A stretch of DNA of 64,000 bases, taken from positions 1,910 to 65,909 of the forward strand of contig DASQIB010000027.1 of NCBI GenBank assembly GCA_035631795.1, read 5' to 3'. The notes under the pieces are model-generated. The model was given only the letters and a program-made list of their open reading frames with translations, did no database searches and was not told the origin of the DNA. The position numbers and the translations under genes are program-made. This document shows, in pieces, positions 12,382 through 55,763 of the stretch (position 1 is the first letter of the stretch; each line of letters starts with the position of its first letter). The stretch is from Gemmatimonadales bacterium (GTDB lineage Bacteria; Gemmatimonadota; Gemmatimonadetes; Gemmatimonadales; GWC2-71-9).

Positions 12382-14220
12382 ATGGCCCAGACCGAACAAT
12401 TCCGACGAGTCGGCAAGTTCGAGCTCCATGAGCTCATCGGGGAAGGTGCGATGGGCGCCGTGTGGAAAGCGTACGACTCGGTCATCCGGCGCTACGTCGC
12501 ACTCAAGCTCCTGTCGCGCGCGGGGCGCACCGCCGACGCGCGCGATCGTTTCCTCCGCGAAGCGCGCGCCGCGGGGGCGCTGCAACACCCGAACATCGTC
12601 ACCATCTACGACCTCGGCGAGTCCGACGGGCAGCTCTTCATCGCCATGGAGCTGGTCGATGGGCGCGACCTGAGCTCGCTCATCGCGTTGAGTGAGCCAC
12701 TCGCGCTCGAACGGAAGCTGGACATCGTCATCGAGGTTCTGCAGGGGCTGTCCTACGCGCATGAGCGCGGCGTGATTCACCGCGACATCAAACCGTCCAA
12801 CGTGCGCATCGCCTCCGACGGTTCGGTGAAGATCATGGATTTCGGGATCGCGCGGCTGCAGTCGGCGGATGCGACGGGTTCGGGCGCGATCATCGGCACC
12901 CCGACATACATGGCGCCGGAGCAGATCACGAATGGCGCCATCACTCCCGCGACGGACATCTTCGCGGTGGGCTGCCTGCTCTACGAGCTGCTCGCGTACC
13001 GCAAGCCGTTCGAGGGCGAGACGGTCCATGGTGTGCTCTACCAGGTGCTCACGACGGACCCGAAGCCACTCCGCACCATGGCGCTCTCCGTTCCCGCGGC
13101 CCTCGAGCGCGTCGTGGCGAAGGCCCTGAACAAGGTGCCCGAAGAGCGCTACGAGACGGCGCGCCAGATGCAGTCCGCGCTCTTCAGCATCCGTGCGGCG
13201 CTGTCCGGCGCGGCGGATACCACGGAGCGTATCAGCCTGCGGTGGTCGCCGATCCCCTCGGCCGTGCTCCGGCTGGTCACCCACGCCCCGCTCAAGTGGC
13301 GCGCCACCGTGTTGACGACGTTGATGGTCACGACGCTGGTGCTGCTGTACGTATCGCGGTCCCCGTCTCCCTCCGCCGCACCGTCTCCCGAGCCCGGCCT
13401 CGCGAACGCCACGCTCGACCAACTCCTGAGCTATCCCCTCCCGATGCACCTCAACCCGGCGCTGCTCGCGCAGCGGGACTCCGCACTCGCGGCCCGGGAC
13501 CGGGCGCAGCGGGCAGGCGCCATGAAGAACAACGTGCCGACGCTCATCCTCGCCGAGGCGGTGCTACAGAACGCCGAGCGCGCCTTGCGCTCCGGGGACG
13601 TGGCCCGCGCCGCCAGCGGCTATCTCAGCGCGATCCCCCAGTATCGCAAGTCACAGACCGAGGGCGAGGAGCTTCGCGTGGAGGCCGAACAGTCGATCGC
13701 GCGCGCCACACCGGTCGTCCACGCGCTCGCGACACGGCCGGAAGCGGGACGGGCCGCGACGTCGCTCGCACGGGCGGAATCGCTGTACACCGCGATGGAT
13801 TATGTGGTGTCCCGCATGGCGGCACTCGATGCGGAGCAGGTCGGGGTGGCGGCCGGCGTCGCTCCGCCGTCGCCCCAGCCGGCGAACACGCGCGACGCGA
13901 TCGGCGTGCTGCTGCAAGATCTGGAACGTGCCGTCTCGAGCGAGCGGGTGGGCAACCTGCAGGTGCTGATGCCGAGCATGGGGGACAAGGACGTGGCGGC
14001 GTGGCAGACCTTCTTCAAGCGCTATACCCAGCTCACCGCGCGCTATAGCGTCGAGCGCCTCAACCCGCGCGGCGACACGGTCTACGCGGCGGTCCGGACC
14101 TCCTACATGTACGTGCCGGCGGGGGGCGGCGCGCAGAGCGAAACCCGCCTCCGTCAGACGATCCGCTTCGCCCGGTCTCCCAACGGCTGGCGCATCGCGG
14201 ACATCCGTAACGCGCCCTGA
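12382..14220 (+). CDS. Ser/Thr protein kinase with TM segment and conserved C-terminal module
   Basis: 612 aa with Hanks motifs GEGAMGAVWKA, HRDIKPSN, DFGIA and TPTYMAPE. TM segment WRATVLTTLMVTTLVLLYV. C-terminal ~110 aa are homologous to the C-terminus of the kinase at 50753..52750. Confidence 0.85.
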   Translation: MAQTEQFRRVGKFELHELIGEGAMGAVWKAYDSVIRRYVALKLLSRAGRTADARDRFLREARAAGALQHPNIVTIYDLGESDGQLFIAMELVDGRDLSSLIALSEPLALERKLDIVIEVLQGLSYAHERGVIHRDIKPSNVRIASDGSVKIMDFGIARLQSADATGSGAIIGTPTYMAPEQITNGAITPATDIFAVGCLLYELLAYRKPFEGETVHGVLYQVLTTDPKPLRTMALSVPAALERVVAKALNKVPEERYETARQMQSALFSIRAALSGAADTTERISLRWSPIPSAVLRLVTHAPLKWRATVLTTLMVTTLVLLYVSRSPSPSAAPSPEPGLANATLDQLLSYPLPMHLNPALLAQRDSALAARDRAQRAGAMKNNVPTLILAEAVLQNAERALRSGDVARAASGYLSAIPQYRKSQTEGEELRVEAEQSIARATPVVHALATRPEAGRAATSLARAESLYTAMDYVVSRMAALDAEQVGVAAGVAPPSPQPANTRDAIGVLLQDLERAVSSERVGNLQVLMPSMGDKDVAAWQTFFKRYTQLTARYSVERLNPRGDTVYAAVRTSYMYVPAGGGAQSETRLRQTIRFARSPNGWRIADIRNAP

Positions 14221-14226
14221 GTCAGC

Positions 14227-14634
14227 TCAGTCCCACGCCCGCTCGGTCGGTAACGGCGGCGGTGGAATCGCCACCGAGTCCGCCCGGGCCGTCGGCGGGC
14301 CGACGCGCCGCAGGGTCACGGGCTTCTCCAGATCGCCGCCCGAGAGCGTGAGCTTCTCGCGGTCGAGCTTCATCCCATACACCTGCCAGACGCCGTCGCC
14401 CAAAGTGAGCCAGAGGCTGTCCCCCACCACGCGCCAGCGCGCGACCTGATCGCCGAACTGGGCCGAGCTGTCGCTCCGCACCATGATGTTGCGGATCTCG
14501 TCCTCGGTCTTGGCCTGCCACCGTCCTTCCAGGCGGGCCGGCTGCGCCTGCCGGGGGGGATCCGACGTCTGCCCGGCGAGGGATGCCGCGGCCGAGCCGA
14601 ACAGGATGAGTACCGCGGAGAGTCGAAGGATCAC
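14227..14634 (-). CDS. secreted hypothetical protein
   Basis: 135 aa, GTG start, signal peptide MILRLSAVLILFGSAAASLAGQ, GC3-rich codons. Confidence 0.55.
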   Translation of the reverse strand: MILRLSAVLILFGSAAASLAGQTSDPPRQAQPARLEGRWQAKTEDEIRNIMVRSDSSAQFGDQVARWRVVGDSLWLTLGDGVWQVYGMKLDREKLTLSGGDLEKPVTLRRVGPPTARADSVAIPPPPLPTERAWD

Positions 14635-14689: not shown

Positions 14690-15910
14690 TCAGGTCCCGG
14701 GCGATGACGGCGGGGTTGGCAGTTGCGGGGCGGGCGCCGCTCCCGCGGGCACGGGCGCCCGCTCATCGGTCATCACGGCCACCTGAGGCTCCCATTGACG
14801 CATCATGCGCAGGAACGCGCCCGCGAGCTCGGGATCGAACTCAGTCCCGGCGCGACCTTCCACATAGGCGAGGGCGCGCTCCTGGGGCCAGGCCTCTCGG
14901 TATGGCCGATTGGTCCGCAGCGCGTCGTAGACATCACATACATGCACGAGCTTGCTCGCCCGATGGCAGTCCCGCCGGTAGCGGAGCTTGGGATAGCCAT
15001 CGCCGTTGAGCATGATGTGATGCTCGTAGGCGACCACGGCGGGCAGGTCGAGCGCTTGCTCCGACTGGAGGATGATGCGCGCTCCCTCGGCCGGATGCTC
15101 GTTCATGAGTGCCCGCTCTTCATCGGTGAAGCGGCCGGGCTTGGTGAGCACCTCGAGGGGGATCTTCACCTTGCCGATGTCGTGGAGTAACCCAGCAACG
15201 CCGAAGGTCCGGACGTCGCGTGCCGGGAGCTCGAGCGATTCGGCGAGCGCCATTGCGAGCACCGCCACGTTCATGGAGTGCGTCGTAGTGTATTGATCGA
15301 ACTCCTTGAGCTGCAGCAGCGGAATCACGATCTCGTGGCCGCTGTGCATGGCGACCGCGAGCGAGCGCACGACCGCCTCCGCCTCGGTGAGCGGGAGAAC
15401 GCCGTGGCTTTTCACTTCGTCCTGCACCCAGCGGAGGGCATCGGCCTCTTCGCTCAACGAATAGGCGATCGTGGCCGTGGGGATCGCAGTAGCGGTCTTC
15501 TCATCCTCGCCGCGAATGCCCACGGCCCCGAACCGGATGCTGGAGCGGCGCAGCTGCCGTGCCTCGGACGTGTCGATCGCCGACAGGGTGAGGCGCGCCA
15601 GCACCTCGTCGAGAAACTCCTCGAACTCCTCACGGCTCACCGTGTCCGCGAACTCGAGGCGCTGGATCCCCGCCTGCGCGAGCCGCTGTCCCCAATCCCA
15701 CGCCTTCATCTCGCGCAAGGGCATCCGCCCGAACACGATCTCCTCGCCGAGGAAGGTGAAGAGCGGTTGCGCTTCCGTCGCCTGCAGGTCGCGCAGTTCC
15801 CTGTAGGCGTCGTCGATGGCCCGCTCGCGCGCGGGATGGCCTGGTGTGTAGAGCGTCATCCCGGCGAGGGCGTGCGCGAACGCGCCGAGAAAGGCCGCCG
15901 GTCCGCTCAC
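14690..15910 (-). CDS. HD-GYP domain protein (putative c-di-GMP phosphodiesterase)
   Basis: 406 aa with HDIGKVKIP ... HHIMLNGDGYP. GTGA overlap with the upstream HEAT-repeat gene. Confidence 0.85.
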   Translation of the reverse strand: MSGPAAFLGAFAHALAGMTLYTPGHPARERAIDDAYRELRDLQATEAQPLFTFLGEEIVFGRMPLREMKAWDWGQRLAQAGIQRLEFADTVSREEFEEFLDEVLARLTLSAIDTSEARQLRRSSIRFGAVGIRGEDEKTATAIPTATIAYSLSEEADALRWVQDEVKSHGVLPLTEAEAVVRSLAVAMHSGHEIVIPLLQLKEFDQYTTTHSMNVAVLAMALAESLELPARDVRTFGVAGLLHDIGKVKIPLEVLTKPGRFTDEERALMNEHPAEGARIILQSEQALDLPAVVAYEHHIMLNGDGYPKLRYRRDCHRASKLVHVCDVYDALRTNRPYREAWPQERALAYVEGRAGTEFDPELAGAFLRMMRQWEPQVAVMTDERAPVPAGAAPAPQLPTPPSSPGT

Positions 15911-17961
15911 CGGTGCCCGCCGGGGTCGGCGGCGTGGCGGATCTCGCGGTCGCCCGAGGCGGCCGCGCGCGCCAGGCGGGCGCGCGCGCGCGGGTTCTGC
16001 TGCCAGCCGGTGACGAGGGCCGCCAGGGCGACGAGGACCTCCGGCGACTTGGGCGGTAGCTTCTCGCGCCCGAACAGTGTTCGGCCGGCCGAGGTCAGCT
16101 GCAACAGCGTCTCGAGGGCTGCCGGCGTCGAGGTGTGGCCGAGCGCCCGGATCGCGAGCACGCGAAGGTCCGTGGGCAGGGCGCGGTCGATCGCACGGCT
16201 GATCAGCAGCGGGACGGCACCGTCCGGTGAACGTTGCAGTGCGACCGCGAGCCCCAGCGCGAGCCGCAGCGTGCGCGGGTCCTGATCCGCAAGGCCGGCG
16301 GCGAGCGCTTCATCCCGCCCTTCGGGAAGCTTGAGCTGCAGCTTGACGGCCTGGAGGCGCACCCGAGCGTCCGCGTGGTGCATGAACCGGACGGCGGAGA
16401 AGCCCGGGGGCACGCCGATCTCCTCGAGCAGCGTCAGCAGGTTGCGAGTCACGTACCACCGCGGGTCGTCGAGCCGCGCGATGACCGTGGGTGCGATGGC
16501 GGTGCCCATCTTCACGAGCTGCGCGAGGAGGCCGCGCCGGGTGCCGCGCGACTCGGCGGTCGCGAGCACGTCGAGCAGCGGCGCTGCTGCCGGCGGACCC
16601 ACGAGCGGCACGACGCGCTCGAGCGTCTTGAAGTCCACCGGCTCGCGGTTCGCGATGCGGCGCACCACGTCCGCTGTGGCGACGCGCCGCCGCACCACCC
16701 CGCTGGCTGCATTTTCCACCGTCACCGTGTCGAGGGCATCGAGCAGCTGCTCCAGCCGTCCTTCGCTGACGACCTGGTCCACCGCCGGATCGAGGCGCGG
16801 GCCCACCGTGCCGATCTCCAGGGCCATGGCGACGATCCGGTCGGGCTCCATGGCGTGGGCATCCGAACGCGCAGGGGTAGCGACCGGCGCGCTCCGCGCC
16901 ATGCGCTGCAACGCGACACCGTACGCTCCCGGGTTCGGATCGGGCAACGTCCAGCCGTCGAGCAGCCGGCGTACTTGATCGCGCAACGCCGCGTCGGCCT
17001 GAGGGCGCACGGCCTCGGCGCCCGTCTCCGCGTGCGCGGCCAGCTTCGAGAGCAGGCGAACGAGGGAGTGCGAGATCGTCTCCTGAGTCGTCTCCGCCGC
17101 GGCCGTGAGGATATCGAGCACGGCGTCCACGGCCATGCCGTCCGTGACATCCGCCACGAACTGGCGACGCTGCGTGAAGTCCCCTCCCATCAGCACGAGC
17201 CGCTGCAGCGCGTCGGGCTTGAGCGTCCGGATGAGCCGGGAGGTGCGACGCCGCAGGGCGGCCGCCTCCGTGCCACCCGCCGTCTTGAGCTCCGCGGCGA
17301 TCTGCAGCAGGTAGCCGACGATCACTTGATCGTAGGCGGCGTCTCCCCCACCCGTGGCGCGCGCATTGATCGCCTGGGCGATCACGGCCGGCTCGGTGGG
17401 CGTTGCGGCGTCCGGGGCGGTGGCGAGGGCCGCGCGGGCGAGTCCCACCCAGAGCTGCGCCCCTCGCGCATCGCCTTCCGCGCGTTCCCCGTCTTGCTCC
17501 GCGAGCTCGAGGCGCTCATAGGTGAGGGGATGCAGCTGCACGTGTGGCCACGCGTTGAGTCGCTCGGCGCCCTCGAGCCCGAGAGGCCGCCCGGTCCGGT
17601 CCGCCTCGGCGGCCAACGCCTTGAGCGCATCCGCCACCTCCGACGGGTCCACGCCCCGCCTGAACGTCACCGCCCCCAGATGGTGGCGGTGAAGCCGGCC
17701 CGCCAGCTCCCGCAGGACAGGGTGTTTGGGATCCGTCGCCACGCCCTCGATGACCAGCTGGTGGCGCGCCACACCGAGCGACAGCGTCGCGCGGTCTTCG
17801 AGCAGCAGCTCGGCCCGCCGGGTCAGCGCCGCCGCGGCGGGCTGGAGGGAGGGGTGGCCCTGGGGATACATGGCGTGCTTGTGCAAGGCGATGGAAAGCT
17901 CGACCAGGAAGTCAGCGAGGGCCCGCGAAAGGGTCGCGCGCTCAGGGGAGGGGGCGGGCAT
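15907..17961 (-). CDS. HEAT-repeat protein with N-terminal domain shared with the HD-GYP protein
   Basis: 684 aa. C-terminal HEAT/PBS-lyase-like repeats (DARVRLQAVKLQL..., LADQDPRTLRLAL...). N-terminus carries an MYPQGHP motif. Confidence 0.7.
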   Translation of the reverse strand: MPAPSPERATLSRALADFLVELSIALHKHAMYPQGHPSLQPAAAALTRRAELLLEDRATLSLGVARHQLVIEGVATDPKHPVLRELAGRLHRHHLGAVTFRRGVDPSEVADALKALAAEADRTGRPLGLEGAERLNAWPHVQLHPLTYERLELAEQDGERAEGDARGAQLWVGLARAALATAPDAATPTEPAVIAQAINARATGGGDAAYDQVIVGYLLQIAAELKTAGGTEAAALRRRTSRLIRTLKPDALQRLVLMGGDFTQRRQFVADVTDGMAVDAVLDILTAAAETTQETISHSLVRLLSKLAAHAETGAEAVRPQADAALRDQVRRLLDGWTLPDPNPGAYGVALQRMARSAPVATPARSDAHAMEPDRIVAMALEIGTVGPRLDPAVDQVVSEGRLEQLLDALDTVTVENAASGVVRRRVATADVVRRIANREPVDFKTLERVVPLVGPPAAAPLLDVLATAESRGTRRGLLAQLVKMGTAIAPTVIARLDDPRWYVTRNLLTLLEEIGVPPGFSAVRFMHHADARVRLQAVKLQLKLPEGRDEALAAGLADQDPRTLRLALGLAVALQRSPDGAVPLLISRAIDRALPTDLRVLAIRALGHTSTPAALETLLQLTSAGRTLFGREKLPPKSPEVLVALAALVTGWQQNPRARARLARAAASGDREIRHAADPGGHR

Positions 17962-18010: not shown

Positions 18011-18047
18011 CACAAAAACAGGGGTCAGGAAAACCCTGACCCCTGTT
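18011..18047 (-). terminator. rho-independent terminator of groES-groEL
   Basis: Perfect 13-bp stem AACAGGGGTCAGG / CCTGACCCCTGTT (18017-18029 / 18035-18047) with a 5-nt loop. On the minus strand it is followed by UUUUUGUG. Confidence 0.65.
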
Positions 18048-18060
18048 CACTATCAACCGC

Positions 18061-18091: not shown

Positions 18092-19726
<1,635 letters not shown>

Positions 19727-19748: not shown

Positions 19749-20063
19749 TCAGCCGAGCTTGGCGATGACGTCGGATTCCTTGATGAGAATGATTTCCTCG
19801 CCGTCCAATTCCACCTGGGTGCCGCTGTACTTCCCGTAGACCACCCGGTCGCCGACCTTCAACTCCATCGGGACCGCCTCCCCCTTCTCCCGGCGTCCGG
19901 GACCTACCGCGATCACCTCGCCCTGGATCGGCTTCTCCTTGGCCGTGTCGGGGATGTAGAGACCACCCTTCATGGTCTCCGTCTCCTCCATCGGTCGGAT
20001 GGCCACGCGATCCGCGAGCGGGAAGATCTTGAGCTTCGCCTTCGCAGCCGTTGCGGTTGCCAT
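19749..20063 (-). CDS. groS: co-chaperonin GroES
   Basis: Track ORF trimmed to the ATG at 20063, giving 104 aa. [15 protein letters not shown]...[29 protein letters not shown] Shine-Dalgarno upstream. Confidence 0.9.
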
Positions 20064-20118
20064 TGCGGTTCGACCTCCACTCCGGTACTTGGTCATAAGT
20101 TCTTGTGGGACAATGTTG

Positions 20119-20145
20119 TTAGCACTCTTCACCAACGAGTGCTAA
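20119..20145 (-). promoter_or_regulatory. CIRCE operator (HrcA binding site)
   Basis: TTAGCACTC-N9-GAGTGCTAA is a perfect match to the CIRCE consensus, 56 nt upstream of the groES start. On the minus strand a TTGACT -35-like hexamer overlaps its 5' half. Confidence 0.9.
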
Positions 20146-30886: not shown

Positions 30887-33255
30887 AGCCGCGAGACTTC
30901 GCTGCTCAACACCCACCCGCGAATTCCATCGACGCGGTGCACCTCGAGCCAGGAACCATAACTGCGATCGATCAGGAGGGCCGCGCCCGCTTCCACCGTC
31001 GACGCGGCGCTCGCGTTGCCGTACGGCGCGGCCCGCACGGGCGTCGCCGGGTTCAAGACGATGGCGAGCGGGCGGGCGCGGCGGAGCCCTTCCTGGATCG
31101 CGAACGCGACCGCGACGGCGGTCAGCATCGCCAAGCCCAAGACCACCGTGCGCCGGCGTCGCGCGGCGAGGGCGAGCCACGCGGCCGTCCAGAACAACAC
31201 CGCGACCAGCGCCCACTCACCCGGCGTGGCGAGTCCCGGCGCGAGCAGCGCCTCGCTCGGCGCGTCGGGCGAGGCGAGGAGATCCCGCGTGCGTCGGATC
31301 ATGGGGTCGCGAGGGGCGAGCTGGAGCGCGCGTGTCCACGCGGCGGTGGCCTTGCCGTCTGCCCCGGCACGATACAGCGTCGCGCCCAGGTTGTACCAAT
31401 GCGCCGCCACGCCGGGCTGCGCCGCCGCCCGCGCCGCGAACGAGTCGGCCGCCGCGCGCAACGCGCCGGCTTCATACAGGGCCTCCGCACTCGGCGCCTG
31501 ACCAGCCACAGTGCGGGCTCCCCCCTCTGCCGCGATCGCCAGACCTACGAGCACCCGGAGGGTCACGATGCTTCCCATCCGGCCCCGCACCCGACCCGGC
31601 TCCGCGCCCAGCACGTGCAGCACTTGCTCGAGCTCCGCGGCGAGCTCCGCGGCATCGCCTTGGCCCCGAGGACCGTAGCGCGACGCCCGCAGGCGATCGC
31701 GCAGCCGCATCACATGTCCGGCGACCGCGCTCTCGAGTCCCGTCGCGCGCAACGCCCGAGCGAGCCCATCGCCGTCTCGCGCCCGGCCATCCGGCACCTG
31801 ACTCTCCAGGACGTGGTGGAACTGCCGCTCCAATAGCCCGAGGCGCGTGAGCTTGACGGGCGCCGGTGCCTCCTCGGCCGGCCCCTCGCGCTCCTCGCGG
31901 CGCCTCCAGAGCCACGCCAGGACCGGAGGACCGACCAGCAACGCCAGCCATCCCCAAGGCACGAGGGCGTCGACCAGTGCCTCGGTCCACGTCGGCGCGT
32001 CGTCCGTCGCGAGCGGTGGCAGGGCGCGCGCGGCTCGCGGCTCGACCCCCGGCGCCACCGCCAGCGTGCGCGGCGGGACGGTGGCCACGCGGTAATCGCC
32101 CGCCATCAGGTCGTAATAGGGATAGCGCACCTCAGGCAGCACGAACGATCCGGCGGAGTCCGGCATCACCAGGTAATGAAAGGTCTTGGTGCCGGCGATT
32201 CTCCCGTCCCGCGGCTCGAGCCGCATACCCGTTTCGCCGGCGTATGCCCGGAAGCCGGGCGGCCAGCGGAGCACCGGCTCCGGCCACAGCGCGACATTGC
32301 CCACGCCCGAAACGCTCGCCGTCATCGCGATCGGCTCGCCGACGCGCCCGCTCGCGGGTTCCATCGCCAGATCCAGCTCGAGGCCCTGCGCCGCCACGCG
32401 CTGGTCGTCGGAGCGCCCGGCGCGCGAGGGCAGCGGCAGTACCACCACCGGCACCGTGTCGCTCCGCAGTGAGAATCGGTCTTCGCGACTGAAGAATGAG
32501 AACGTGGCCGGCACGGCGTACTCGACCAGCGCCGGCGGAATCACGATCCGACCAGCCGCGAGGGGAAACACGGCCTGGTGCGCCACGAACACGTCCATCC
32601 AGTGTCCACGCACCAGCCGCGACAGGGCGACTTCACTCGGTGCCGCCCCGGGATACGACCACACGCCCTCCGGCGTCTGGAGTGTGAGAATTGGCGCCTG
32701 ACGCAGGCGCGCACGCAGCTCGCGCGGGAACCACGCCGCGGCGATCACGTCCAGCTGTTGCCCCACCAGCACGGAGTCGCCGGGCAGGATCAGGCTCAGG
32801 GCCACCCGGTCGTTGCGCGCGGGCTCCCGGGCGGCCTCGACCAACCGGCGCGCGCTGGGCGAGAACGCCGCCGCGAGCACCGCGTCCGCGCTGTCGACCG
32901 TCACCGTGACCGGACTCGTCGCCACCTCGCGGCTCCCCTGGTGCACGCGCACCGGCCCGATCACGAGTGTGCCCGGGCGTGCCGCCCGCAGCTGGAGCTC
33001 ACGCGTCGTCGTGCGCACCGGGCCGCCCACGCCCTCGATCGTGACCTCGCTGACCTCCCGCGAGCCAACGATGGTGAACCCCGTGAGTCCCGGCAGCACG
33101 ACGCCGATCGGCTCCGAAGATCGGGTGCGCGCGCGGATCGTCAGGGTCAGATCCTCTCCGGCCGCCACATGCGTCCGGTCGACGCGCGCCGTCACGTCGG
33201 GCGGGGAGGGGGGCACGCCCTGCAGCGCCACGACCAGCCACAGGGTGAGCGTCAC
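30883..33255 (-). CDS. BatD-like protein fused to BatE-like TPR + SH3 region
   Basis: Trimmed to the GTG at 33255 (GTGA overlap), giving 790 aa. Signal peptide, BatD-type body, TM segment (WGWLALLVGPPVLAWLW), TPR (HWYNLGATLYRAGADGKA) and a C-terminal SH3-like segment (GSWLEVHRVDGIRGWVLSSEV). Confidence 0.7.
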   Translation of the reverse strand: MTLTLWLVVALQGVPPSPPDVTARVDRTHVAAGEDLTLTIRARTRSSEPIGVVLPGLTGFTIVGSREVSEVTIEGVGGPVRTTTRELQLRAARPGTLVIGPVRVHQGSREVATSPVTVTVDSADAVLAAAFSPSARRLVEAAREPARNDRVALSLILPGDSVLVGQQLDVIAAAWFPRELRARLRQAPILTLQTPEGVWSYPGAAPSEVALSRLVRGHWMDVFVAHQAVFPLAAGRIVIPPALVEYAVPATFSFFSREDRFSLRSDTVPVVVLPLPSRAGRSDDQRVAAQGLELDLAMEPASGRVGEPIAMTASVSGVGNVALWPEPVLRWPPGFRAYAGETGMRLEPRDGRIAGTKTFHYLVMPDSAGSFVLPEVRYPYYDLMAGDYRVATVPPRTLAVAPGVEPRAARALPPLATDDAPTWTEALVDALVPWGWLALLVGPPVLAWLWRRREEREGPAEEAPAPVKLTRLGLLERQFHHVLESQVPDGRARDGDGLARALRATGLESAVAGHVMRLRDRLRASRYGPRGQGDAAELAAELEQVLHVLGAEPGRVRGRMGSIVTLRVLVGLAIAAEGGARTVAGQAPSAEALYEAGALRAAADSFAARAAAQPGVAAHWYNLGATLYRAGADGKATAAWTRALQLAPRDPMIRRTRDLLASPDAPSEALLAPGLATPGEWALVAVLFWTAAWLALAARRRRTVVLGLAMLTAVAVAFAIQEGLRRARPLAIVLNPATPVRAAPYGNASAASTVEAGAALLIDRSYGSWLEVHRVDGIRGWVLSSEVSRL

Positions 33256-34919
33256 CAATCTTTCACTCCGGGCTCCACCGCGTGGCGCGTCTGCCCGGTG
33301 CGGTCGCGGCGGGTTTTCAGCTCCTGCTGACCGATGGAGCGCAGGACCTGCTCGGCCTGCGCCTCGCTCAACGCCGCCGGCGCGCCGCCCCCCCCGCGGC
33401 TCGCGCCGCCACCGCTCGAGCCCGACGGCCTGCTCCCGCCTCCGCCCGACGGGCGGTTCGACTGCCTGCTGCTGCCCCCACCGCGCCGCCGGACGGCGAG
33501 CTCGAGGTTCCATTTCGCCGCGGCGTCGGTCGGTCGCAGCAGCAGCGCTTCCCGATACGCCCGCTCGGCATCGCCGAGGTGGCCGTCGCGCCCCGCGCTG
33601 TCGGCGCTCGCCTGCCGCAGTGCCAGAAGGCCAAGGTTGTAGAGCGCGCGGAAGCGTAGATCGGGGTCGAGCGACGCTGCGGCATGTGCCAGGGCGGCCT
33701 GCGCCGTCTCAGCGTCGGAGTCCGCCATGGCGGCCGTGCCGGCGTTATACCAGGCCGCGTCATCCTTGCGATGCGTTGTGAGCTCGGCCGCGTACGCTGC
33801 GTGTGCGCGCCTCACATCGTGCCGGTCCCACGCCTTTTCGGCGGGGCTCCGCGGATGCTGTGGCAGAGGGAGGGGTTGCTGCGCCACGCCAGACGAGGGC
33901 ACCAGGCACGCCAGAACGAGGCCGAGCAGCGCGGCGGTGCGGCGCGACGCGGCCTGCGCCACGAGCACCATCACGGCGAGCATGAGGGGCAGCCAGGCCC
34001 GGGGCCGGCCCCGCTCCGCTCGTGTCTCGCTCGCTCGCGCTCGCCGGTACGACGCGACGAGATCGCGCACCGCGCCGGCCTGGTCCGGGAGATCCGCGGC
34101 GACGAGCGATCCCTGGGCCGCGTCCGCCACGGCGCCGAGGATGTCGTCGCGCCGGGCGGTCTCGATCACGGTGCCGTCGGCGTCCTTCTGATATCCGAGC
34201 AACGCACCGCGGTCATCCCGCACAGGGATGCGCGTCGGTGCGCGGCCGCCCTCGGCGACGAGGATCAGACGAACCCCGCTCGCCTGCAGGCGTTGCGCCG
34301 CGGCCACAATACCCGGCACGGTATCGTGCGCCTCGCCGTCCGTGAACACCACCAGCACCCGATCGGCCAGCTCCGAGCTGGCGCGGAGCAGCTCGCCGCC
34401 CTGGCGCAGCGCCCCGGCCATACCGGTGCCGCCCTCCGAGGCGACGTCAGGATCCAAAGCGTCGAGGTAAAGCGAGAGGGCCGAGCCGTCGATCGAGAGC
34501 GGGGACAGGATATAGCTCGAGCCGGCGAACGCGATGAGGCCGAGCCGATCGCCATCCAGGTCCTGCACGAGCCGCCGCGCTTCGCGCAACGCGCGCCGCA
34601 GCCGGCTGGGACTCGCATCCTCCGCGAGCATGGAGCGCGAGATATCGATGGCCATCACGAGGGAGAGCCCGCGAGTCTCCGCTACGATCTGCTCTTCGCC
34701 CCAGCGCGGCCCGGCGAGCGCCACGACGCCGAGAAACGCCGCGACAGACAGCGCGGTCGGCCCGAGCCGACCGGCGCCCAGCGCGCGTCGCACCGTTTCC
34801 TCCGACCAGAGGGCGGCCCGCCGGATACGCACACGACACGCCCAGGCGGCGGCGAACCACACCGCCCCGCCGATCAGGGGCGCGAGCGCGAGTACGACGG
34901 GGGCGTCGAAACTCATCAC
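33252..34919 (-). CDS. BatB-like VWA protein fused to BatC-like TPR region
   Basis: 555 aa. N-terminal TM segments, VWA MIDAS motif (VMAIDISRSM), then TPR (AWYNAGTAAMADSD..., ALYNLGLLALRQ). Confidence 0.75.
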   Translation of the reverse strand: MMSFDAPVVLALAPLIGGAVWFAAAWACRVRIRRAALWSEETVRRALGAGRLGPTALSVAAFLGVVALAGPRWGEEQIVAETRGLSLVMAIDISRSMLAEDASPSRLRRALREARRLVQDLDGDRLGLIAFAGSSYILSPLSIDGSALSLYLDALDPDVASEGGTGMAGALRQGGELLRASSELADRVLVVFTDGEAHDTVPGIVAAAQRLQASGVRLILVAEGGRAPTRIPVRDDRGALLGYQKDADGTVIETARRDDILGAVADAAQGSLVAADLPDQAGAVRDLVASYRRARASETRAERGRPRAWLPLMLAVMVLVAQAASRRTAALLGLVLACLVPSSGVAQQPLPLPQHPRSPAEKAWDRHDVRRAHAAYAAELTTHRKDDAAWYNAGTAAMADSDAETAQAALAHAAASLDPDLRFRALYNLGLLALRQASADSAGRDGHLGDAERAYREALLLRPTDAAAKWNLELAVRRRGGGSSRQSNRPSGGGGSRPSGSSGGGASRGGGGAPAALSEAQAEQVLRSIGQQELKTRRDRTGQTRHAVEPGVKDW

Positions 34920-35896
34920 GGCACTCGCACGGCGAAGGTGCCCGCCAGCACGATTTCGAGCGCCAACGCTACCAGTCCCACCGCCAGCGGCACGCGATAC
35001 GCTTCGTCGAAGCGGCGGTAGACCACCTGTTCCACGCTCGATTTTTCGAGTCGGTTGATCTCCTGAAAGATGTGCCGGAGCGACTCGGAATCCGTCGCCC
35101 GGAAGTACCGACCTCCGGTCATGGAGGCGATCTCGGTCATCAGGGGCTCGTCGATCTCGACGAGCATCATTTCGTAGCGCAGGCCATCGGCACCCTGCCC
35201 CGTGGGCACCGGTGCCTCTCCCCGCTTTCCGACGCCGATGACGTAGATCTTGATCCCGAACGCCGCGGCAGCCTGGGCCGCCGTGCGCGGATCGACCGTG
35301 CCGCGATTGTTCACGCCGTCGGTCAGGAGCACGATCACCTTGCTCTTCCCCGGCGCGCGCCGGAGGCGGCTGGCGGCGGTGCCGATCCCCGTGCCGATGG
35401 CCGTGCCATCCTCGAGCATGCCGATCTTCAGATCCCGGATCGCTTGCTCGAGCACTTGGTAATCGGTGGTGAGCGGGACCTGCGTGAGCGCCTGCGCGGC
35501 GAAGGCGACGAGCCCGATTCGGTCGGACTTGCGGGCCCGCACGAACTCGATCGCGGTTTGCTTGGCCACGTCGATGCGGTTCGCCGGCGCGAAGTCTTCC
35601 GCCAGCATGCTGCTCGACATGTCGATGGCCAGCACGATGGAGATGCCTTCACTGCGGCTCTCACTCTTCGCGGCCCCGACCCGCGGGCCGGCCGCGGCGA
35701 TGATCCAAGCGGCGAGGCACGCGCTCCGCAGGGTCACCGGCAGCCGAGCCACCCAGAGCCGCTCGGTGGCGCCGGCGGCCGGTCGCACATCGCTCATGCG
35801 GGTGCCCGCAAGCCGCCCGAGCCGCTTGGCGCGCAGCCACCACCACAGCGGCAGGAAGCCGAGCGCTAAGAGCAGCAACGGACGGGCGAAGCTCAC
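34916..35896 (-). CDS. BatA-like VWA domain membrane protein
   Basis: 326 aa with N-terminal TM segments and a VWA domain (VLAIDMSSSMLAEDF). GTGA overlap upstream. Confidence 0.8.
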   Translation of the reverse strand: MSFARPLLLLALGFLPLWWWLRAKRLGRLAGTRMSDVRPAAGATERLWVARLPVTLRSACLAAWIIAAAGPRVGAAKSESRSEGISIVLAIDMSSSMLAEDFAPANRIDVAKQTAIEFVRARKSDRIGLVAFAAQALTQVPLTTDYQVLEQAIRDLKIGMLEDGTAIGTGIGTAASRLRRAPGKSKVIVLLTDGVNNRGTVDPRTAAQAAAAFGIKIYVIGVGKRGEAPVPTGQGADGLRYEMMLVEIDEPLMTEIASMTGGRYFRATDSESLRHIFQEINRLEKSSVEQVVYRRFDEAYRVPLAVGLVALALEIVLAGTFAVRVP

Positions 35897-36786: not shown

Positions 36787-37724
36787 CGTTTCAGTCGGCG
36801 GGCGCGCTCGGCGAAGGCTCGCCGCAACGGGACCGCGTATGGCACACTGGTCTGAAGCGCCACGCGATCCACGCCCGCCTGCACCAGCTTTCGCGACCGC
36901 TCCTGGAGCAAACGTTCGGCCGCCACGCTGACGCGCGTCCGGGTCGGTGCATGGCTGGTATCGAGGAGCACACGCTGCCCCGTTTCCGAATCCTCCATGT
37001 CGACCCACCCCGCGTCGGGCAGCAGGCGCTCCCGCGGGTCGTCGATCGTGATGGCCACCACGTCGTGATTCGCGGCCAGCTGGGCCAAGGGATCCTCCCA
37101 CCCGTCGGCCCGGAAGTCCGACAGGATGACGACGATCGCGCGGTGTCGCGGCAGCTTCGACGCGTAGCGCAAGGCCTCGCCGAGGTTCGTGCCGCGGCCG
37201 CGCGGCCGGAACGCCACCAGGTCGCGGATCACGCGCAAAGCGTGCGGCCGCCCTTTCGCGGGCCGCAGGACGACCTCCACGCGGTCCGCGAACATGAGCG
37301 CGCCCACACGGTCGTTGTGGCGCGCGGCGGCAAGGGCGAGCACGGCCGCGACTTCCACGGCGAGGCCCGCCTTGGTGTAGGGTCGCCCGAACTGGCAGGA
37401 GCCCGACTGGTCCACGACGAGCATCAGCGTATTCTCGCGCTCCTCGTGGTACGTCTTCACGAAGGGGTGCCCCATTCGGGCCGAGACGTTCCAGTCGATC
37501 GCCCGGAAGTCGTCTCCCTGCTGGTATTCCCGGACCTCCGCGAACTCGATGCCCTGTCCGCGGAACACGGATCGGTATTCGCCGGTGAAGAGGGAGTTGA
37601 CGAGGCCGCGCGTGCGGAGCTCGATCCCCTTGACCTGTCGCAACACCTCGGGGGTGACCGCGAGGCGGCGCGCGCGCAGCGGAGATGTCTCGGCGCGCCG
37701 ACGCTCCCTCCCTGCGTACTTCAC
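36783..37724 (-). CDS. DUF58 domain protein
   Basis: 313 aa. GEYRSVFRGQGIEFAEVREYQQGDDFRAIDWNVSAR is the DUF58 signature. GTGA overlap with the moxR stop. Confidence 0.85.
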   Translation of the reverse strand: MKYAGRERRRAETSPLRARRLAVTPEVLRQVKGIELRTRGLVNSLFTGEYRSVFRGQGIEFAEVREYQQGDDFRAIDWNVSARMGHPFVKTYHEERENTLMLVVDQSGSCQFGRPYTKAGLAVEVAAVLALAAARHNDRVGALMFADRVEVVLRPAKGRPHALRVIRDLVAFRPRGRGTNLGEALRYASKLPRHRAIVVILSDFRADGWEDPLAQLAANHDVVAITIDDPRERLLPDAGWVDMEDSETGQRVLLDTSHAPTRTRVSVAAERLLQERSRKLVQAGVDRVALQTSVPYAVPLRRAFAERARRLKR

Positions 37725-38695
37725 GGCACGCCCACGGCCTCCAGGATCTTGCCGATGACGCGGTCGGAGTCCATGTCCTCCGCCTCCGCCTCGAACGTGA
37801 GCAGTACGCGATGCCGCAGCACGTCGTACGCCATCGCTTTGACGTCCTCCGGGACCACGTAGGAGCGACCACGGAGGAAGGCATGCGCCCGCGCCGCCTG
37901 CGCGAGGTAGATGGACGCCCGCGGGCTCGCCCCGAACGCAATCAGCGGCTTGAGCTCCGGCAGTCCGATGGCCTGCGGCTCGCGCGTCCCGCGCACCACG
38001 TCCACGATGTAATCGACCACTTTCTGATCCATGAACAGCTCGGCGATCGCGCTCCGCGCCGCGAGGATGTCGTCGGCCTCGGCCACGCGCTGCACCTCGA
38101 TCGGCCGGCCCGACGCCATCCGCGCGACGATCTCCTTCTCAGCGTCGCGCGAGGGATAGGCGACGCGCACCTTGAGCATGAAACGGTCGAGCTGGGCTTC
38201 GGGCAGGGGGTAGGTGCCTTCCTGCTCGATCGGGTTCTGGGTCGCGAGCACGAGAAACGGCTCCCCGAGATAGAAGGTCTCGCCCCCGATCGTCACCTGC
38301 TTCTCTTGCATCGCTTCGAGTAACGCCGACTGCACTTTCGCCGGCGCGCGATTGATCTCGTCCGCGAGCACCAAGTTGGCGAAGAGCGGTCCCTTTTTCG
38401 GGTAGAACTCCTGGGTGCGCTGGTCGAAGACCATCGTCCCGATCACGTCCGCGGGGAGCAGGTCCGGCGTGAACTGGATCCGCGAGAACGAGATCTTCAA
38501 GCACTCCGCCACCGTGCGCACGGCGAGCGTCTTGGCGAGCCCGGGGACGCCCTCGAGCAGAATATGTCCACCCGTCAGTAAGCCAACGAGCAGACGCTCG
38601 ACCATGAGCTCCTGCGCAACGACGCGCTTGCCGACCTCCCGCGCGATCGTCTGGCTCAGCACCGCGTCGCCGGTCTTGGACGTTTTTGTGCTCAT
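37721..38695 (-). CDS. MoxR-family AAA+ ATPase
   Basis: 324 aa with HILLEGVPGLAKT (Walker A) and LADEINRAPAKVQSALLEAMQE, in the AAA_3 family. Confidence 0.92.
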   Translation of the reverse strand: MSTKTSKTGDAVLSQTIAREVGKRVVAQELMVERLLVGLLTGGHILLEGVPGLAKTLAVRTVAECLKISFSRIQFTPDLLPADVIGTMVFDQRTQEFYPKKGPLFANLVLADEINRAPAKVQSALLEAMQEKQVTIGGETFYLGEPFLVLATQNPIEQEGTYPLPEAQLDRFMLKVRVAYPSRDAEKEIVARMASGRPIEVQRVAEADDILAARSAIAELFMDQKVVDYIVDVVRGTREPQAIGLPELKPLIAFGASPRASIYLAQAARAHAFLRGRSYVVPEDVKAMAYDVLRHRVLLTFEAEAEDMDSDRVIGKILEAVGVP

Positions 38696-40311
38696 TTCAG
38701 CGCCGCCTCCGCCGCTTTGCGCACCGCGGGCTCCTTGTCCTTGCTGTAGAGTTCCAACAAGCCCCGTGCTTCGGGCCGTGTGAGGTACCGTAGACCATCC
38801 ACTGCGGCTGCCCGCACCATCGCGCTCCGACGGTGCATCATCCCGCCGGGCTCGGCGTACTTGGCGAGCACGTCGAGGGCCTCCTTGGACCCCAGCCGCC
38901 CGATCGCGCGGAGCAACTCCGCCTGTACCCCTTCGTCCGGCTCCTGCTCCATGCGTCGAATGAGCACCGTGGACGACGAGGGGTCGCCTCCGGCCGCCAC
39001 CGCCCGAGCGGCCGCCGAACGTACCGCCACACTCTCGTCCTTCAGGGCCGGCATGGCCGGGCGCGCGATCTCACGCCCCCCCGCCTCGGCCAGGCCGAGC
39101 AGCGCCGCCTCGCGCACATATTCGGACGTGTGGCGCAGCAAAGGCAAGAGCAGGGATATCGCCTGCGGGCTGCCGGTGACGCCGAGGAACTCCGCCGCGG
39201 CGGCCACGACGGTGGGCTCCGCATCGGCGAGCTTCCCCTGAAGAGGTTCGATCGCCCGATCCGCCGCCGCGCGGATCGTGGCGCGATACGGTGCCCGCAG
39301 CTCCGCCGGCGCGGCGACAAAGGCATCGATCACCAGCCCCATCGACACTGATGCGAGCGCCCCCACGGCCGTCACTACCGCCTCGAGCTCATCGGCCGGG
39401 ACGCGTGATTCCCCGAGCCGATGCACGAGGCGCTCGACCAGCGCGCGATCGGACAGCGCCAGCGCGGCTTTGTCGATCGCGCCCAGAACGCCCGGATCCT
39501 GGACGGTGGGCAGCAGCCGGTCGAGGGCGGCGATCGCGTCCGCGACGATCGCCACGTCGTGCAGCGCGATCAGCTTCTCCGCCAACCCGTGGAGCTTCTC
39601 GACGGCCACCCGTTGCTCCTCGGGTGTCGTGGCGGTGCGGAGGCCCGCGACGGCGCGCTTGACCTCCACGTCCACCGGAAGCACGTCCGGCCGGAACGCG
39701 GCGCTGGCGCGCCGCGACGCGAGCAGTGACTCCGCCGACGGCGCGGCAGGCACCGCGGCCGGCGATTGTGGGGGAGGCGCCGGGTATGTCGGGGGTGGTG
39801 CTGTGGGGATCGGCGGCGCCGGAAGGGGAGAGGCGGAGACCGCCGGCGGCTCAGGTGACACAGGCAGCGCGGGGACGCCCTCCGCCGGCGTCGGCGCGCG
39901 CAACCGGTCGAGGCGCGTGGCCGAGCGGCGACCGAGCGCGAGCGTGATCCGGCCGAGCGTCGCGTCGTCGTGGGGGAGCGCCCCGGTCGCGACATGAAAG
40001 AGCGCGAGGACGTGATCGGGCGTCATCCCGGGATTGAGCGTCACCGCGCGTACCCCCCGAGCGTACAGCAGGCCCGCGAGCTGGGCGATCTGCGCGTTGC
40101 GAGGCAGCAGGTGCTGGCCGTGCCAGTGGAGCCCCGTGACTCCGACCTTCCATTCCAGGGTCCCGAGCGCGGCGAGGGGCGGCAACGTCTCGCCGATCTG
40201 CCGCAGCGCCTCCATGACCGCCGGATGGGACGGCGGATAGAGGCGCGTCAGGCGGAACGTCGTGCCGATGGCGCCGAGTGCGCGTTCGACTCCTGCGGTC
40301 TCCGCTCCCAT
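38692..40311 (-). CDS. HEAT-repeat protein, second paralog with the LYPxxHP N-terminal domain
   Basis: Track ORF trimmed to the ATG at 40311, giving 539 aa. N-terminal RLTRLYPPSHPAVMEAL, a Pro-rich linker, and C-terminal HEAT repeats (SEYVREAALLGLAEAG, DESVAVRSAAARAVAA, DKEPAVRKAAEAAL). Confidence 0.65.
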   Translation of the reverse strand: MGAETAGVERALGAIGTTFRLTRLYPPSHPAVMEALRQIGETLPPLAALGTLEWKVGVTGLHWHGQHLLPRNAQIAQLAGLLYARGVRAVTLNPGMTPDHVLALFHVATGALPHDDATLGRITLALGRRSATRLDRLRAPTPAEGVPALPVSPEPPAVSASPLPAPPIPTAPPPTYPAPPPQSPAAVPAAPSAESLLASRRASAAFRPDVLPVDVEVKRAVAGLRTATTPEEQRVAVEKLHGLAEKLIALHDVAIVADAIAALDRLLPTVQDPGVLGAIDKAALALSDRALVERLVHRLGESRVPADELEAVVTAVGALASVSMGLVIDAFVAAPAELRAPYRATIRAAADRAIEPLQGKLADAEPTVVAAAAEFLGVTGSPQAISLLLPLLRHTSEYVREAALLGLAEAGGREIARPAMPALKDESVAVRSAAARAVAAGGDPSSSTVLIRRMEQEPDEGVQAELLRAIGRLGSKEALDVLAKYAEPGGMMHRRSAMVRAAAVDGLRYLTRPEARGLLELYSKDKEPAVRKAAEAALK

Positions 40312-40315
40312 GGGG

Positions 40316-41962
40316 TCAGCGCTTGATCCGTTCTCCCCGGTCCTCGAACCGGAAGACCCACGTGGCGAAGCGTGCGGGCTCGATCGGATCGTCCGCGCCG
40401 ATCGCGGTCCAGTCCACGCCGCTCCCGGACTCGGTCGAGCATTGCGCGCGCCGCTCGGCCTGCGCCACCATCTCGCGCGCCCGCGTGATCCAGCCCCCGA
40501 ACTGCTCCGGGCGCAGATCCACCCACCCCCGAGGCGCCGCCGAGCGGGGGTCCCCACCGTCGCCGGGGACCGCGACCTGCCGCCCCCGGTATACCCGATC
40601 GCCATCGGGCGTGAGGATGGGAATACCCACGGACAGAATATGGCTCCGCAATACCGCGTCCCGCTCGATCCGGGCATGGGCGGCGGCCGACAGCTCTCCT
40701 GGTCGCGAGTCCGCCAGGGCCCGGACCGTGGGGCGGAGCAGCGCACACAGGTAGGACTCCCACAACAGCTTGGTGAGCCGTGGCGGCCCGAGCATCTCGA
40801 ACGCCACGGCGCGGCGCCCGGCTTCGCCCTCGAGCGCGCGCAACCGCTCCAGGGCCGCGCCCCGGAGCATCGCCGCGCGATACGTCGGGCCGGCGGTGGT
40901 GGCGTCGAGCGCCGCGACCACGTCCCGTCCGGTCGGCCGCCCTTCGAGCTCCATCATCACGTAGTCCGCCACCTCCTCCGGCGTGATGAACTCCATCTGC
41001 CCCAGCGCGGTCACCGTTTCGAATTCGTCGCGCGAGAACAGACCATTCTCTCCGACGTCGATATACGCGCCCTCCAGGGTCTGGCCAAGCTCGCGCCAGG
41101 GGTGCGCGTCGGGCGTGAACGCCTGATCGAGCGCGACCGGAGTCGGGCAATCGACGAGCGCAATCGGCTTCCCCTTGCGACGGATCGGGCCGAAGCCGAT
41201 CTCGCGCCATCCGATCGTCGCGGTGGGCTTGATCTCCACAGTTGCGGGGGCGCCCGGTGTCCGGCCGAGCAGGAAGAGCAGCAGCGACTGCGCGCCCGCC
41301 ACGGCGGACTTCGTGAGGAGGAGGCGGCTGGGACGCTCCTCCGAATGCGTGTACGGAATGTTGAAGCCCATCCCGCCCGTCCCGCTCGTCCCGATCTTCA
41401 CGTAGGCGCCAGTCTCCGCACGCCTGAGCGATTCGACCAGGATCTGCACGTGGCGGATCAGCTGCGGCATGGTGAGCGACAGCACGTGGCGCTCGACCGT
41501 CGCCCGATCGACCTGTCCACGGCCGGCCGACTCGAGCAGGGCCTGCGCGCTTTTTTCGGCATCCTGGTACGCAAACGCGGTCGCGGTGTTGACGCTGTCG
41601 ATGACGATGTCGGGTCGACGGGTGGTGAGGAGCTGATACAGGAAGCTCCGGTTCAGAATGTCCTCAGTGAGCTCACCGAGCAGGTCGTTCACGAGCAGCC
41701 GCCGGTGCGCCGGGTCGGCCATCACGGTGGCGCGCTCGAGTCGGGCGAGGCTCGCCGGCAGAAACAGGTCCCCCCATTCAACGTCGATCGCGGTGCCGCC
41801 ACGATACGAATCGAGGGCGCGGGCGGTGCCCTTCACCTCGTCCTCGAACAGGGCGACGAGGACGATCCGGCCGGGCGCGGCGCCGAGCAGCCGCTTCGCC
41901 ACGGCGTGCCCCACCAGGCCGCTACCGCCCAGGATCATTACCGTTCGGTCACGCAGGTTCAC
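40316..41962 (-). CDS. NAD(P)-binding Rossmann-fold protein, unknown function
   Basis: 548 aa. N-terminal VMILGGSGLVGHAVAKRLL (GxxGxxG). Conserved-looking block GTSGTGGMGFNIPYTHSEE. No family was recognised by eye. Confidence 0.65.
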   Translation of the reverse strand: MNLRDRTVMILGGSGLVGHAVAKRLLGAAPGRIVLVALFEDEVKGTARALDSYRGGTAIDVEWGDLFLPASLARLERATVMADPAHRRLLVNDLLGELTEDILNRSFLYQLLTTRRPDIVIDSVNTATAFAYQDAEKSAQALLESAGRGQVDRATVERHVLSLTMPQLIRHVQILVESLRRAETGAYVKIGTSGTGGMGFNIPYTHSEERPSRLLLTKSAVAGAQSLLLFLLGRTPGAPATVEIKPTATIGWREIGFGPIRRKGKPIALVDCPTPVALDQAFTPDAHPWRELGQTLEGAYIDVGENGLFSRDEFETVTALGQMEFITPEEVADYVMMELEGRPTGRDVVAALDATTAGPTYRAAMLRGAALERLRALEGEAGRRAVAFEMLGPPRLTKLLWESYLCALLRPTVRALADSRPGELSAAAHARIERDAVLRSHILSVGIPILTPDGDRVYRGRQVAVPGDGGDPRSAAPRGWVDLRPEQFGGWITRAREMVAQAERRAQCSTESGSGVDWTAIGADDPIEPARFATWVFRFEDRGERIKR

Positions 41963-55432: not shown

Positions 55433-55519
55433 CGGACAGGGTGGGATTCGAACCCACGGTACCCTTGCGGGCACACCGGTTTTCGAGACCGGCCGTTTCA
55501 ACCGCTCACGCACCTGTCC
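55433..55519 (-). tRNA. tRNA-Ser (anticodon CGA)
   Basis: Minus strand: GGACAGG acceptor, anticodon stem CCGGT/ACCGG with loop CU-CGA-AA, long variable arm, GTGGGTTCGAATCCCAC T-arm, discriminator G. CCA is not encoded. Confidence 0.88.
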
Positions 55520-55676: not shown

Positions 55677-55763
55677 CGGATAGGGTGGGATTCGAACCCA
55701 CGAAACGGTTACCCGTTTACACGCTCTCCAGGCGTGTGCCTTCAGCCGCTCGGCCACCTATCC
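55677..55763 (-). tRNA. tRNA-Ser (anticodon GGA)
   Basis: Minus strand: GGATAGG acceptor, anticodon stem CACGC/GCGTG with loop CU-GGA-GA, long variable arm, GTGGGTTCGAATCCCAC T-arm. Confidence 0.88.

Follow-up and report, generated by a model that had tools for sequence, protein, structure and literature searches.

In a 64,000-nucleotide stretch of DNA from a Gemmatimonadales bacterium (assembly GCA_035631795.1, contig DASQIB010000027.1, positions 1,910 to 65,909 of the forward strand; hereafter the window), we found two overlapping genes whose products, a HEAT-repeat protein designated HEAT-1 and an HD-GYP phosphodiesterase, begin with homologous copies of the same domain. The observed gene overlap, the homology and shared predicted fold of the two N-terminal domains, the constraint on them, the strict pairing of the two genes among relatives and the intact active site of the enzyme form the basis of our proposal, for which we see about even chances, that the genes constitute a conserved bicistronic module in which a phosphodiesterase and a HEAT scaffold are made stoichiometrically and joined through the shared N-terminal domain (N-domain). 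So far, this module is known from Gemmatimonadota alone. The G+C content of the window is ~69%, and its closest relatives are metagenome-assembled genomes of Gemmatimonadales.

The original prediction, made from the sequence without database searches, described a 684-aa gene that overlaps the HD-GYP gene by the letters GTGA. Both open reading frames (ORFs) and the overlap were read in the sequence: the start codon of the HD-GYP gene lies on the stop codon of the HEAT-1 gene (junction ...CAC CGG TGA), an arrangement that marks the two genes as predicted to be translationally coupled. The prediction also held that the first ~110 residues of the two proteins align. Pairwise BLASTP, applied to the full-length proteins and to the N-termini alone, detected no N-terminal similarity between them, and hhalign with shallow profiles (relatives with at least 70% identity) returned 43-52% probability and E values of 1e-4 to 2e-4 for the N-termini, and 10% probability for the full-length proteins, where the N-terminal match was the only one. 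A deeper HEAT-1 profile was obtained by searching residues 1-160 against 1.84 billion cluster representatives (50% clusters), which yielded 957 matches at E<=1e-3; the best 150 of them were without exception proteins of ~690 aa or fragments, 43-89% identical over the region that matched. When this diverse profile was compared with the HD-GYP N-termini, the probability rose to 94.4% (E 8.4e-8, 95 columns), and trimming to the domain gave 96.0% (E 4.3e-9, 97 columns), with HEAT-1 residues 15-118 aligned to HD-GYP residues 4-105 in the register that had been proposed. In control comparisons, reversal of one profile gave E values of 0.1 and 0.46, and reversal of both gave 4.6e-7. The N-terminal similarity is thus significant in profile comparison, and the order of predicted secondary-structure elements is the same in both proteins. 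This homology is visible to profiles alone. The possibility that HEAT-1 is a degenerate HD-GYP protein was rejected, as the full-length profile comparison showed no second similar region. In addition, a hidden Markov model (HMM) of the HEAT-1 N-domain was run on the 8356 ORFs obtained by six-frame translation of the window and of 82 loci. It returned ~75 weak, sub-threshold matches (E 5e-6 to 0.06), and all of them were downstream HD-GYP frames, save for one further protein of the window, designated HEAT-2.

The two N-domains were also compared at the level of predicted structure. The AlphaFold2 model of HEAT-1 residues 1-165 had a predicted local distance difference test (pLDDT) score of 85 and a predicted template modelling score of 0.77, with helices (H) and strands (E) at H13-31, H39-53, E59-64, E69-71, H81-92, E95-101, H106-117 and E141-145. 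In the HD-GYP model, in which residues 1-110 had a pLDDT above 90, the elements were H4-20, H26-45, E50-54, E57-60, H72-79, E84-87, H93-109 and E125-128. Both models therefore present the same order: a helix, a loop with the motif Y-x3-H-P, a second helix, beta-hairpins, a helix, a strand and a helix. In HEAT-1, residues 32-38 were assigned to the loop by DSSP, and Y32, P33, H36 and P37 were the sole invariant columns of the N-domain among 89 members of the family, with identity down to 41%. In the HD-GYP proteins, Y21 and H25 were invariant in 72 orthologues, and P26 was found in 71 of the 72. In an alignment of the HEAT-1, HD-GYP and HEAT-2 families, few positions are retained: one Leu in each of helices 1, 2 and 3, the Gly of the hairpin, and the Y...HP motif alone. 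The motif's Tyr, His and Pro are the sole polar or turn-forming residues common to the three families. Within the HEAT-1 family, the N-domain shows the highest conservation of any part of the protein (mean identity of 76% vs. 57-61% elsewhere). Judged from these alignments, the N-domains of both HEAT-1 and the HD-GYP protein are under strong constraint. No family was assigned by a Pfam scan of 77 members with the shared domain, and no NCBIfam model fell on either N-domain.

To examine the distribution of the pair, loci were surveyed in one genome per species of the Genome Taxonomy Database (GTDB). A HEAT-1 relative was found in 408 species, and the best 80 loci, with 51-96% identity, were examined. 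Almost all of these loci are labelled Gemmatimonadales and a few Gemmatimonadota or Gemmatimonadaceae; three carry the labels Actinobacteria, Stellaceae and Acidobacteriota, which we take to be binning errors. In every examined locus with downstream DNA, an HD-GYP gene directly follows the HEAT-1 relative, so the co-conservation on which the original prediction was made to depend was observed in this neighbourhood survey. An exact four-nucleotide overlap of start and stop codons was present in 65 of 75 related loci (GTGA in 32, ATGA in 30 and TTGA in 3) and also in loci L081-L085. In six loci, an apparent gap of 47 nucleotides was dismissed as no real separation, the script having chosen an internal ATG as the start. 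Two relatives that are distant in the N-domain, P0368 and P0352 (43% and 45% identity there, respectively), lie in different neighbourhoods, one of them near SBP_bac_5 and PAD_porph genes, and both have an overlapping downstream gene. The gene after P0368 carries an HD_5 domain, while the gene after P0352 is cut by the end of the contig and has an N-terminus that matches the N-domain HMMs. From the side of the HD-GYP gene, P0180 has an overlapping HEAT gene of ~640 aa upstream, while for P0240 the gene upstream also overlaps and runs off the end of the contig. The pair and its overlap are kept where the surrounding groESL, orf135 and kinase genes give way to other genes. All named members of the family come from Gemmatimonadota, Longimicrobiales included, and among the matches listed neither gene was found without the other and none was found outside this phylum.

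Some assembly artefacts were met in the course of this survey. An apparent HEAT/HD-GYP fusion of 1035 aa (L027, 1461-4568) was rejected, since it is a frameshifted stretch of the assembly with a run of N after it. In L083 and L084 (4085-7205), which are low-coverage long-read assemblies, the HEAT gene is split into frames of 434 and 222 aa and the HD-GYP gene into frames of 253 and 148 aa, presumably by frameshift errors. Split genes of this kind account for the many database matches to the HD-GYP N-domain that are short 'proteins'.

The HD-GYP protein was matched by the Pfam families HD_5 (E 7e-26, residues 206-362) and HD (E 1e-14) and contains the motifs HDIGK and HHxxxNGDGYP. In the PDB, its catalytic domain was closest in both sequence and fold to PmGH, the GAF-HD-GYP protein of Persephonella marina (4MCW; sequence E 1e-28, Foldseek E 1.7e-7). 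The Foldseek comparison of the full model with PmGH gave a whole-chain alignment with a root-mean-square deviation of 18 Å and is therefore uninformative on the N-domain. The seven metal ligands of PmGH (H189, H221, D222, H250, H276, H277 and D305) correspond to H211, H243, D244, H272, H297, H298 and D326 here, and these positions were invariant in 72 of 72 orthologues. The same 72 sequences also share D205 and K247 (equivalent to D183 and K225 of PmGH), K257, G259, G305-Y306-P307, D329 and R335 without exception; the KPG motif (K257-P258-G259) is present, with P258 kept in 61 of them. Because the ligands and catalytic residues are all present and near-wholly invariant, the protein is very probably an active phosphodiesterase.

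Two sites distinguish this enzyme from PmGH, and both are invariant in the 72 orthologues. The position of PmGH E185, a ligand of the third metal, is occupied by Tyr207 (motif Y-T-T), so that the carboxylate characteristic of the trinuclear E/D-T-G subfamily is lacking. A Tyr or Phe at this position defines the Y/F subfamily of HD-GYP proteins (PMC4159591), and the invariant Tyr207 places the enzyme in this subfamily, which is presumably binuclear. Members of the Y/F subfamily mostly stop at pGpG (Galperin and Chou preprint). The second site is the guanine-binding RxxK pair (R314 and K317 in PmGH), which is replaced by RxxR (R335-P-Y-R338). Variation in this pair has been associated with a different choice of substrate (Galperin and Chou preprint), and the enzyme may therefore be specific for cyclic di-GMP (c-di-GMP) or for 3'3'-cyclic GMP-AMP (3'3'-cGAMP). 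Tyr207 and RxxR together mark a distinct HD-GYP subtype, whose product may be pGpG or GMP and whose substrate may be c-di-GMP or 3'3'-cGAMP, c-di-GMP being the presumed one.

The 2746 relatives of HEAT-1 found at E<=1e-3 were all annotated as 'hypothetical protein' and all came from Gemmatimonadota. The earlier label of 'HEAT-repeat protein' proved apt for the C-terminal third of HEAT-1 and did not extend to the rest of its 684 residues. A search of PDB sequences with the family profile matched engineered proteins of the alphaRep/PBS-HEAT type with an E value of 4e-19 (positions ~433-644) and MTH187 with an E value of 0.02, and gave no match outside the HEAT-like repeats. In the window protein, Pfam HEAT_2 remained below threshold (residues 552-623, E 0.0024, 18.5 bits vs. 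a cut-off of 27.7), while in the relatives P0318 and P0352 it was above threshold. Residues 1-430, comprising the N-domain and a middle region of 265 residues, had no match in Pfam, NCBIfam or the PDB sequences. HEAT-1 accordingly resembles the PBS-lyase/alphaRep-type HEAT-like proteins (HEAT_2, MTH187) over its C-terminal ~220 residues at the profile level, and differs from them in the N-domain and the middle region, for which no counterpart was matched.

HEAT-2 carries a third copy of the domain, followed by a Pro-rich linker and HEAT repeats, and its N-terminus contains LTRLYPPSHPAV. Its ORF was listed at 38692-40746 on the reverse strand, with a GTG start at 40746 that is likely over-extended, the true start being the ATG at 40311. 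The HEAT-1 N-domain HMM matched HEAT-2 with an E value of 2.6e-4, and in hhalign the N-terminal profile of the HEAT-2 family aligned with the HEAT-1 N-domain with 93.8% probability (E 1.7e-7, 86 columns). The HEAT repeats of HEAT-2 are strong (Pfam HEAT_2 E 6e-26). The stop codon of HEAT-2 overlaps the start of a MoxR gene at the head of a Bat-like operon with the order MoxR/DUF58/VWA/VWA (the region 33252-35896 on the reverse strand is part of this locus), and the arrangement recurs in L086, where it ends in BatD. The presence of the N-domain on HEAT-2 indicates that the domain is not confined to the c-di-GMP pair, and the combination of N-domain plus HEAT recurs as the first gene of operons, translationally coupled to the gene that follows. 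A broader proposal, which we advance tentatively and hold to be rather doubtful in its full extent, is that the Y-x3-H-P domain is a new association and signalling module found across Gemmatimonadota, whose HEAT-solenoid adaptors are each translationally coupled to a different enzyme system (HD-GYP or MoxR/Bat AAA+). The phosphodiesterase and its adaptor would then heterodimerise via paralogous domains, and hydrolysis would be set by partner stoichiometry or by a ligand of the Tyr/His loop.

Under the proposed mechanism of the HEAT-1/HD-GYP module, the start/stop overlap would lead to the two proteins being made in a fixed proportion. Their homologous N-domains would pair, by analogy with the dimer of PmGH, which is built solely by the N-terminal GAF domain and a linker helix (PMC4159591). 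This pairing would tether the phosphodiesterase to the HEAT scaffold, which would localise or regulate it, and the invariant Tyr/His loop could serve as a contact or ligand site. We infer both the hetero-association and its effect on activity. An exploratory mirror-tree analysis speaks for the mechanism in a suggestive way only: with the other regions removed, the two N-domains gave a partial correlation of 0.385, the highest of the five cross-protein region pairs tested, in a test that is statistically uncalibrated. Several results weigh against this mechanism. Co-conservation was seen within one phylum only, and inherited synteny therefore contributes to it. Foldseek found nothing significant in the PDB for the model of the HEAT-1 N-domain (best E 0.16, template modelling (TM) score ~0.2). 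In addition, MoxR, the coupled neighbour of HEAT-2, is without the shared N-domain; the domain thus needs no domain-bearing partner and fits a sensor role equally well.

The main rival explanation is that the N-domain is a small-molecule or metal input, possibly of a reduced GAF-like type, through which each protein senses the same signal on its own and no heteromer is formed; we regard this as possible, if on the whole unlikely. The domain lies N-terminal to an output domain, which is usual for sensors (Galperin and Chou preprint), and its invariant Tyr/His loop could bind a ligand. Its recurrence on HEAT-2 in another operon is like that of modular sensors, and favours this explanation because the coupled MoxR does not carry it. 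The top Foldseek matches to the HEAT-1 N-domain were mostly GAF domains (phytochrome, PelD, 3K2N, 3CIT, NifA), and the predicted order a1-a2-b-b-b-a3-b-a4-b is compatible with the GAF topology of PmGH, with five strands predicted vs. six in GAF. However, these matches were non-significant (E 0.16-2.6, TM ~0.2), and none of the 77 members had a Pfam GAF match. The shared domain is possibly a reduced and highly divergent GAF-like fold, which we offer as a lead and not as a result. Sensing by each protein separately would also leave the four-nucleotide overlap and the strict pairing across ~50% sequence divergence unexplained, and HEAT repeats are not known to act as a signalling output.

Two further explanations are less likely than separate sensing. 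HEAT-1 might act as a decoy, its N-domain forming non-productive heterodimers with HD-GYP monomers and so inhibiting or buffering the phosphodiesterase. HD-GYP enzymes work as dimers assembled via their N-terminal domains (PMC4159591; Galperin and Chou preprint), HEAT-1 has a dimerisation-type domain and no HD-like region according to the full-length hhalign comparison, and fixed-ratio co-translation resembles that of enzyme-inhibitor pairs. This scenario is nevertheless entirely inferential and does not account for the large middle and HEAT regions, whose conservation (57-61% identity) speaks for HEAT-1 doing more than sequestering the enzyme, and we consider it improbable. The scenario that there is no functional link, with the adjacency reflecting gene order inherited in one phylum and the N-terminal resemblance an old domain duplication, seems more improbable still. 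The examined loci are all from Gemmatimonadota, and groESL, orf135 and the Ser/Thr kinase gene are often syntenic as well; however, the pair and its four-nucleotide overlap outlast the replacement of these neighbours, both N-domains are strongly constrained, and neither gene was seen alone among the loci examined.

In functional terms, the RpfG-type HD-GYP proteins are the closest parallel among known systems to a phosphodiesterase that has a partner of its own, although RpfG differs in having a REC input domain. The partners of RpfG are GGDEF and PilZ proteins, which are contacted through the GYP motif; they are not known to be encoded by an overlapping gene or to share the N-terminal domain of RpfG. 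PmGH has the same layout as the enzyme described here, an N-terminal alpha/beta domain followed by a long helix and the HD-GYP domain. In its GAF domain, a six-stranded sheet is accompanied by two helices at the N-terminus and by two further, short ones (PMC4159591), whereas the N-domain here has neither a GAF-model match nor a significant PDB-fold match, and PmGH is without a partner gene that shares its N-domain. The Bd1817 family (DUF3391-HD-GYP; PA4108, VC2497) likewise has a domain of ~120 aa and unknown function before the HD-GYP domain, thought to promote dimerisation (Galperin and Chou preprint). DUF3391 consists of four strands and then two helices (Galperin and Chou preprint), while the domain here opens with two helices; DUF3391 (PF11871) was not detected in the HD-GYP N-domain or in the 77 members, and the predicted order of elements is the opposite. 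Regulation by HD-GYP proteins is known to proceed partly via complexes with other proteins (Galperin and Chou preprint). Our searches of the literature on HD-GYP proteins with HEAT repeats or in Gemmatimonadetes/Gemmatimonas found no description of the pair, nor of any HD-GYP protein co-translated with a non-enzymatic partner that bears the same N-terminal domain. The original view that this is not a described system agrees with these searches and with the lack of a Pfam or NCBIfam model for the shared domain. The HD-GYP enzyme class is well known; the results suggest, without proving it, a previously undescribed form of control by a domain-sharing adaptor.

The positions of all features are given in Table 1. 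In most related loci, as in the window, groES and groEL lie directly upstream of HEAT-1. A promoter scan upstream of the operon revealed no sigma-70-type site, and Rfam revealed no regulatory RNA near it; the operon could be expressed via read-through from the chaperonin operon or from a near-leaderless start of its own. The orf135 gene, which had no match in a Pfam scan, follows the HD-GYP gene in 67 of the 80 loci, mostly with a spacing of -4 to 70 nucleotides, and is possibly an exported third component of the operon. The Ser/Thr kinase gene keeps its place beside the module in many loci of Gemmatimonadales and is absent in more distant ones. The sole Rfam matches in the window were two tRNA genes of 87 nucleotides on the reverse strand (55433-55519 and 55677-55763), ~160 nucleotides apart, whose length suggests types with a long variable arm.

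Table 1. Features of the HEAT-1/HD-GYP and HEAT-2 loci (positions are those of the window)
Feature	Position	Strand	Remarks
HEAT-1 gene	15907-17961	-	684 aa, ATG start; N-domain, conserved helical middle and C-terminal HEAT-like repeats
HEAT-1 N-domain	17503-17928	-	residues 12-153; core homologous to HD-GYP N-domain is residues 15-118
HEAT-1 YPQGHP motif (Y32-P37)	17851-17868	-	loop joining helices 1 and 2
HEAT-1 HEAT-like repeats (PBS-lyase/alphaRep-type)	16012-16665	-	residues ~433-650
GTGA overlap	15907-15910	-	HD-GYP start codon on HEAT-1 stop codon
HD-GYP phosphodiesterase gene	14690-15910	-	406 aa, GTG start; very probably active
HD-GYP N-domain	15581-15910	-	residues 1-110
HD-GYP motif Y21-x3-H25-P26	15833-15850	-	within the N-domain
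HD-GYP catalytic domain	14786-15310	-	residues ~201-375; alignment to PmGH
groES	19749-20135		upstream of HEAT-1
groEL	18092-19726		upstream of HEAT-1
Intrinsic-terminator-like hairpin after groEL	18016-18048	-	15-bp stem then T run; ~55 nt upstream of HEAT-1 start
orf135	14227-14634	-	~135 aa, predicted signal peptide; 55 nt downstream of HD-GYP gene
Ser/Thr protein kinase gene	12382-14220	+	612 aa, convergent; Pkinase E 1e-52
HEAT-2	38692-40311	-	539 aa from the likely start; N-domain (LYPPSHP), Pro-rich linker, HEAT repeats
MoxR AAA+ gene	37721-38695	-	start overlapped (ATGA) by HEAT-2 stop

In most HD-GYP proteins the N-terminal region has no recognised domain, and the way in which such regions control hydrolysis is still to be explained (Galperin and Chou preprint). 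The present finding supplies a new N-terminal domain that is clearly bounded and has a sharply defined invariant motif, together with a co-translated partner that is dedicated to the enzyme and bears this domain as well, and hundreds of natural sequence pairs are available for co-evolution analysis and multimer modelling. The regulation of an HD-GYP protein by a partner is thereby opened to direct tests, in a phylum that is common in soils and in which c-di-GMP signalling has hardly been studied. That the domain recurs on the MoxR/Bat-linked HEAT-2 suggests a wider family of adaptors, and, if true, heterodimer-based control would be a new mode of HD-GYP regulation.

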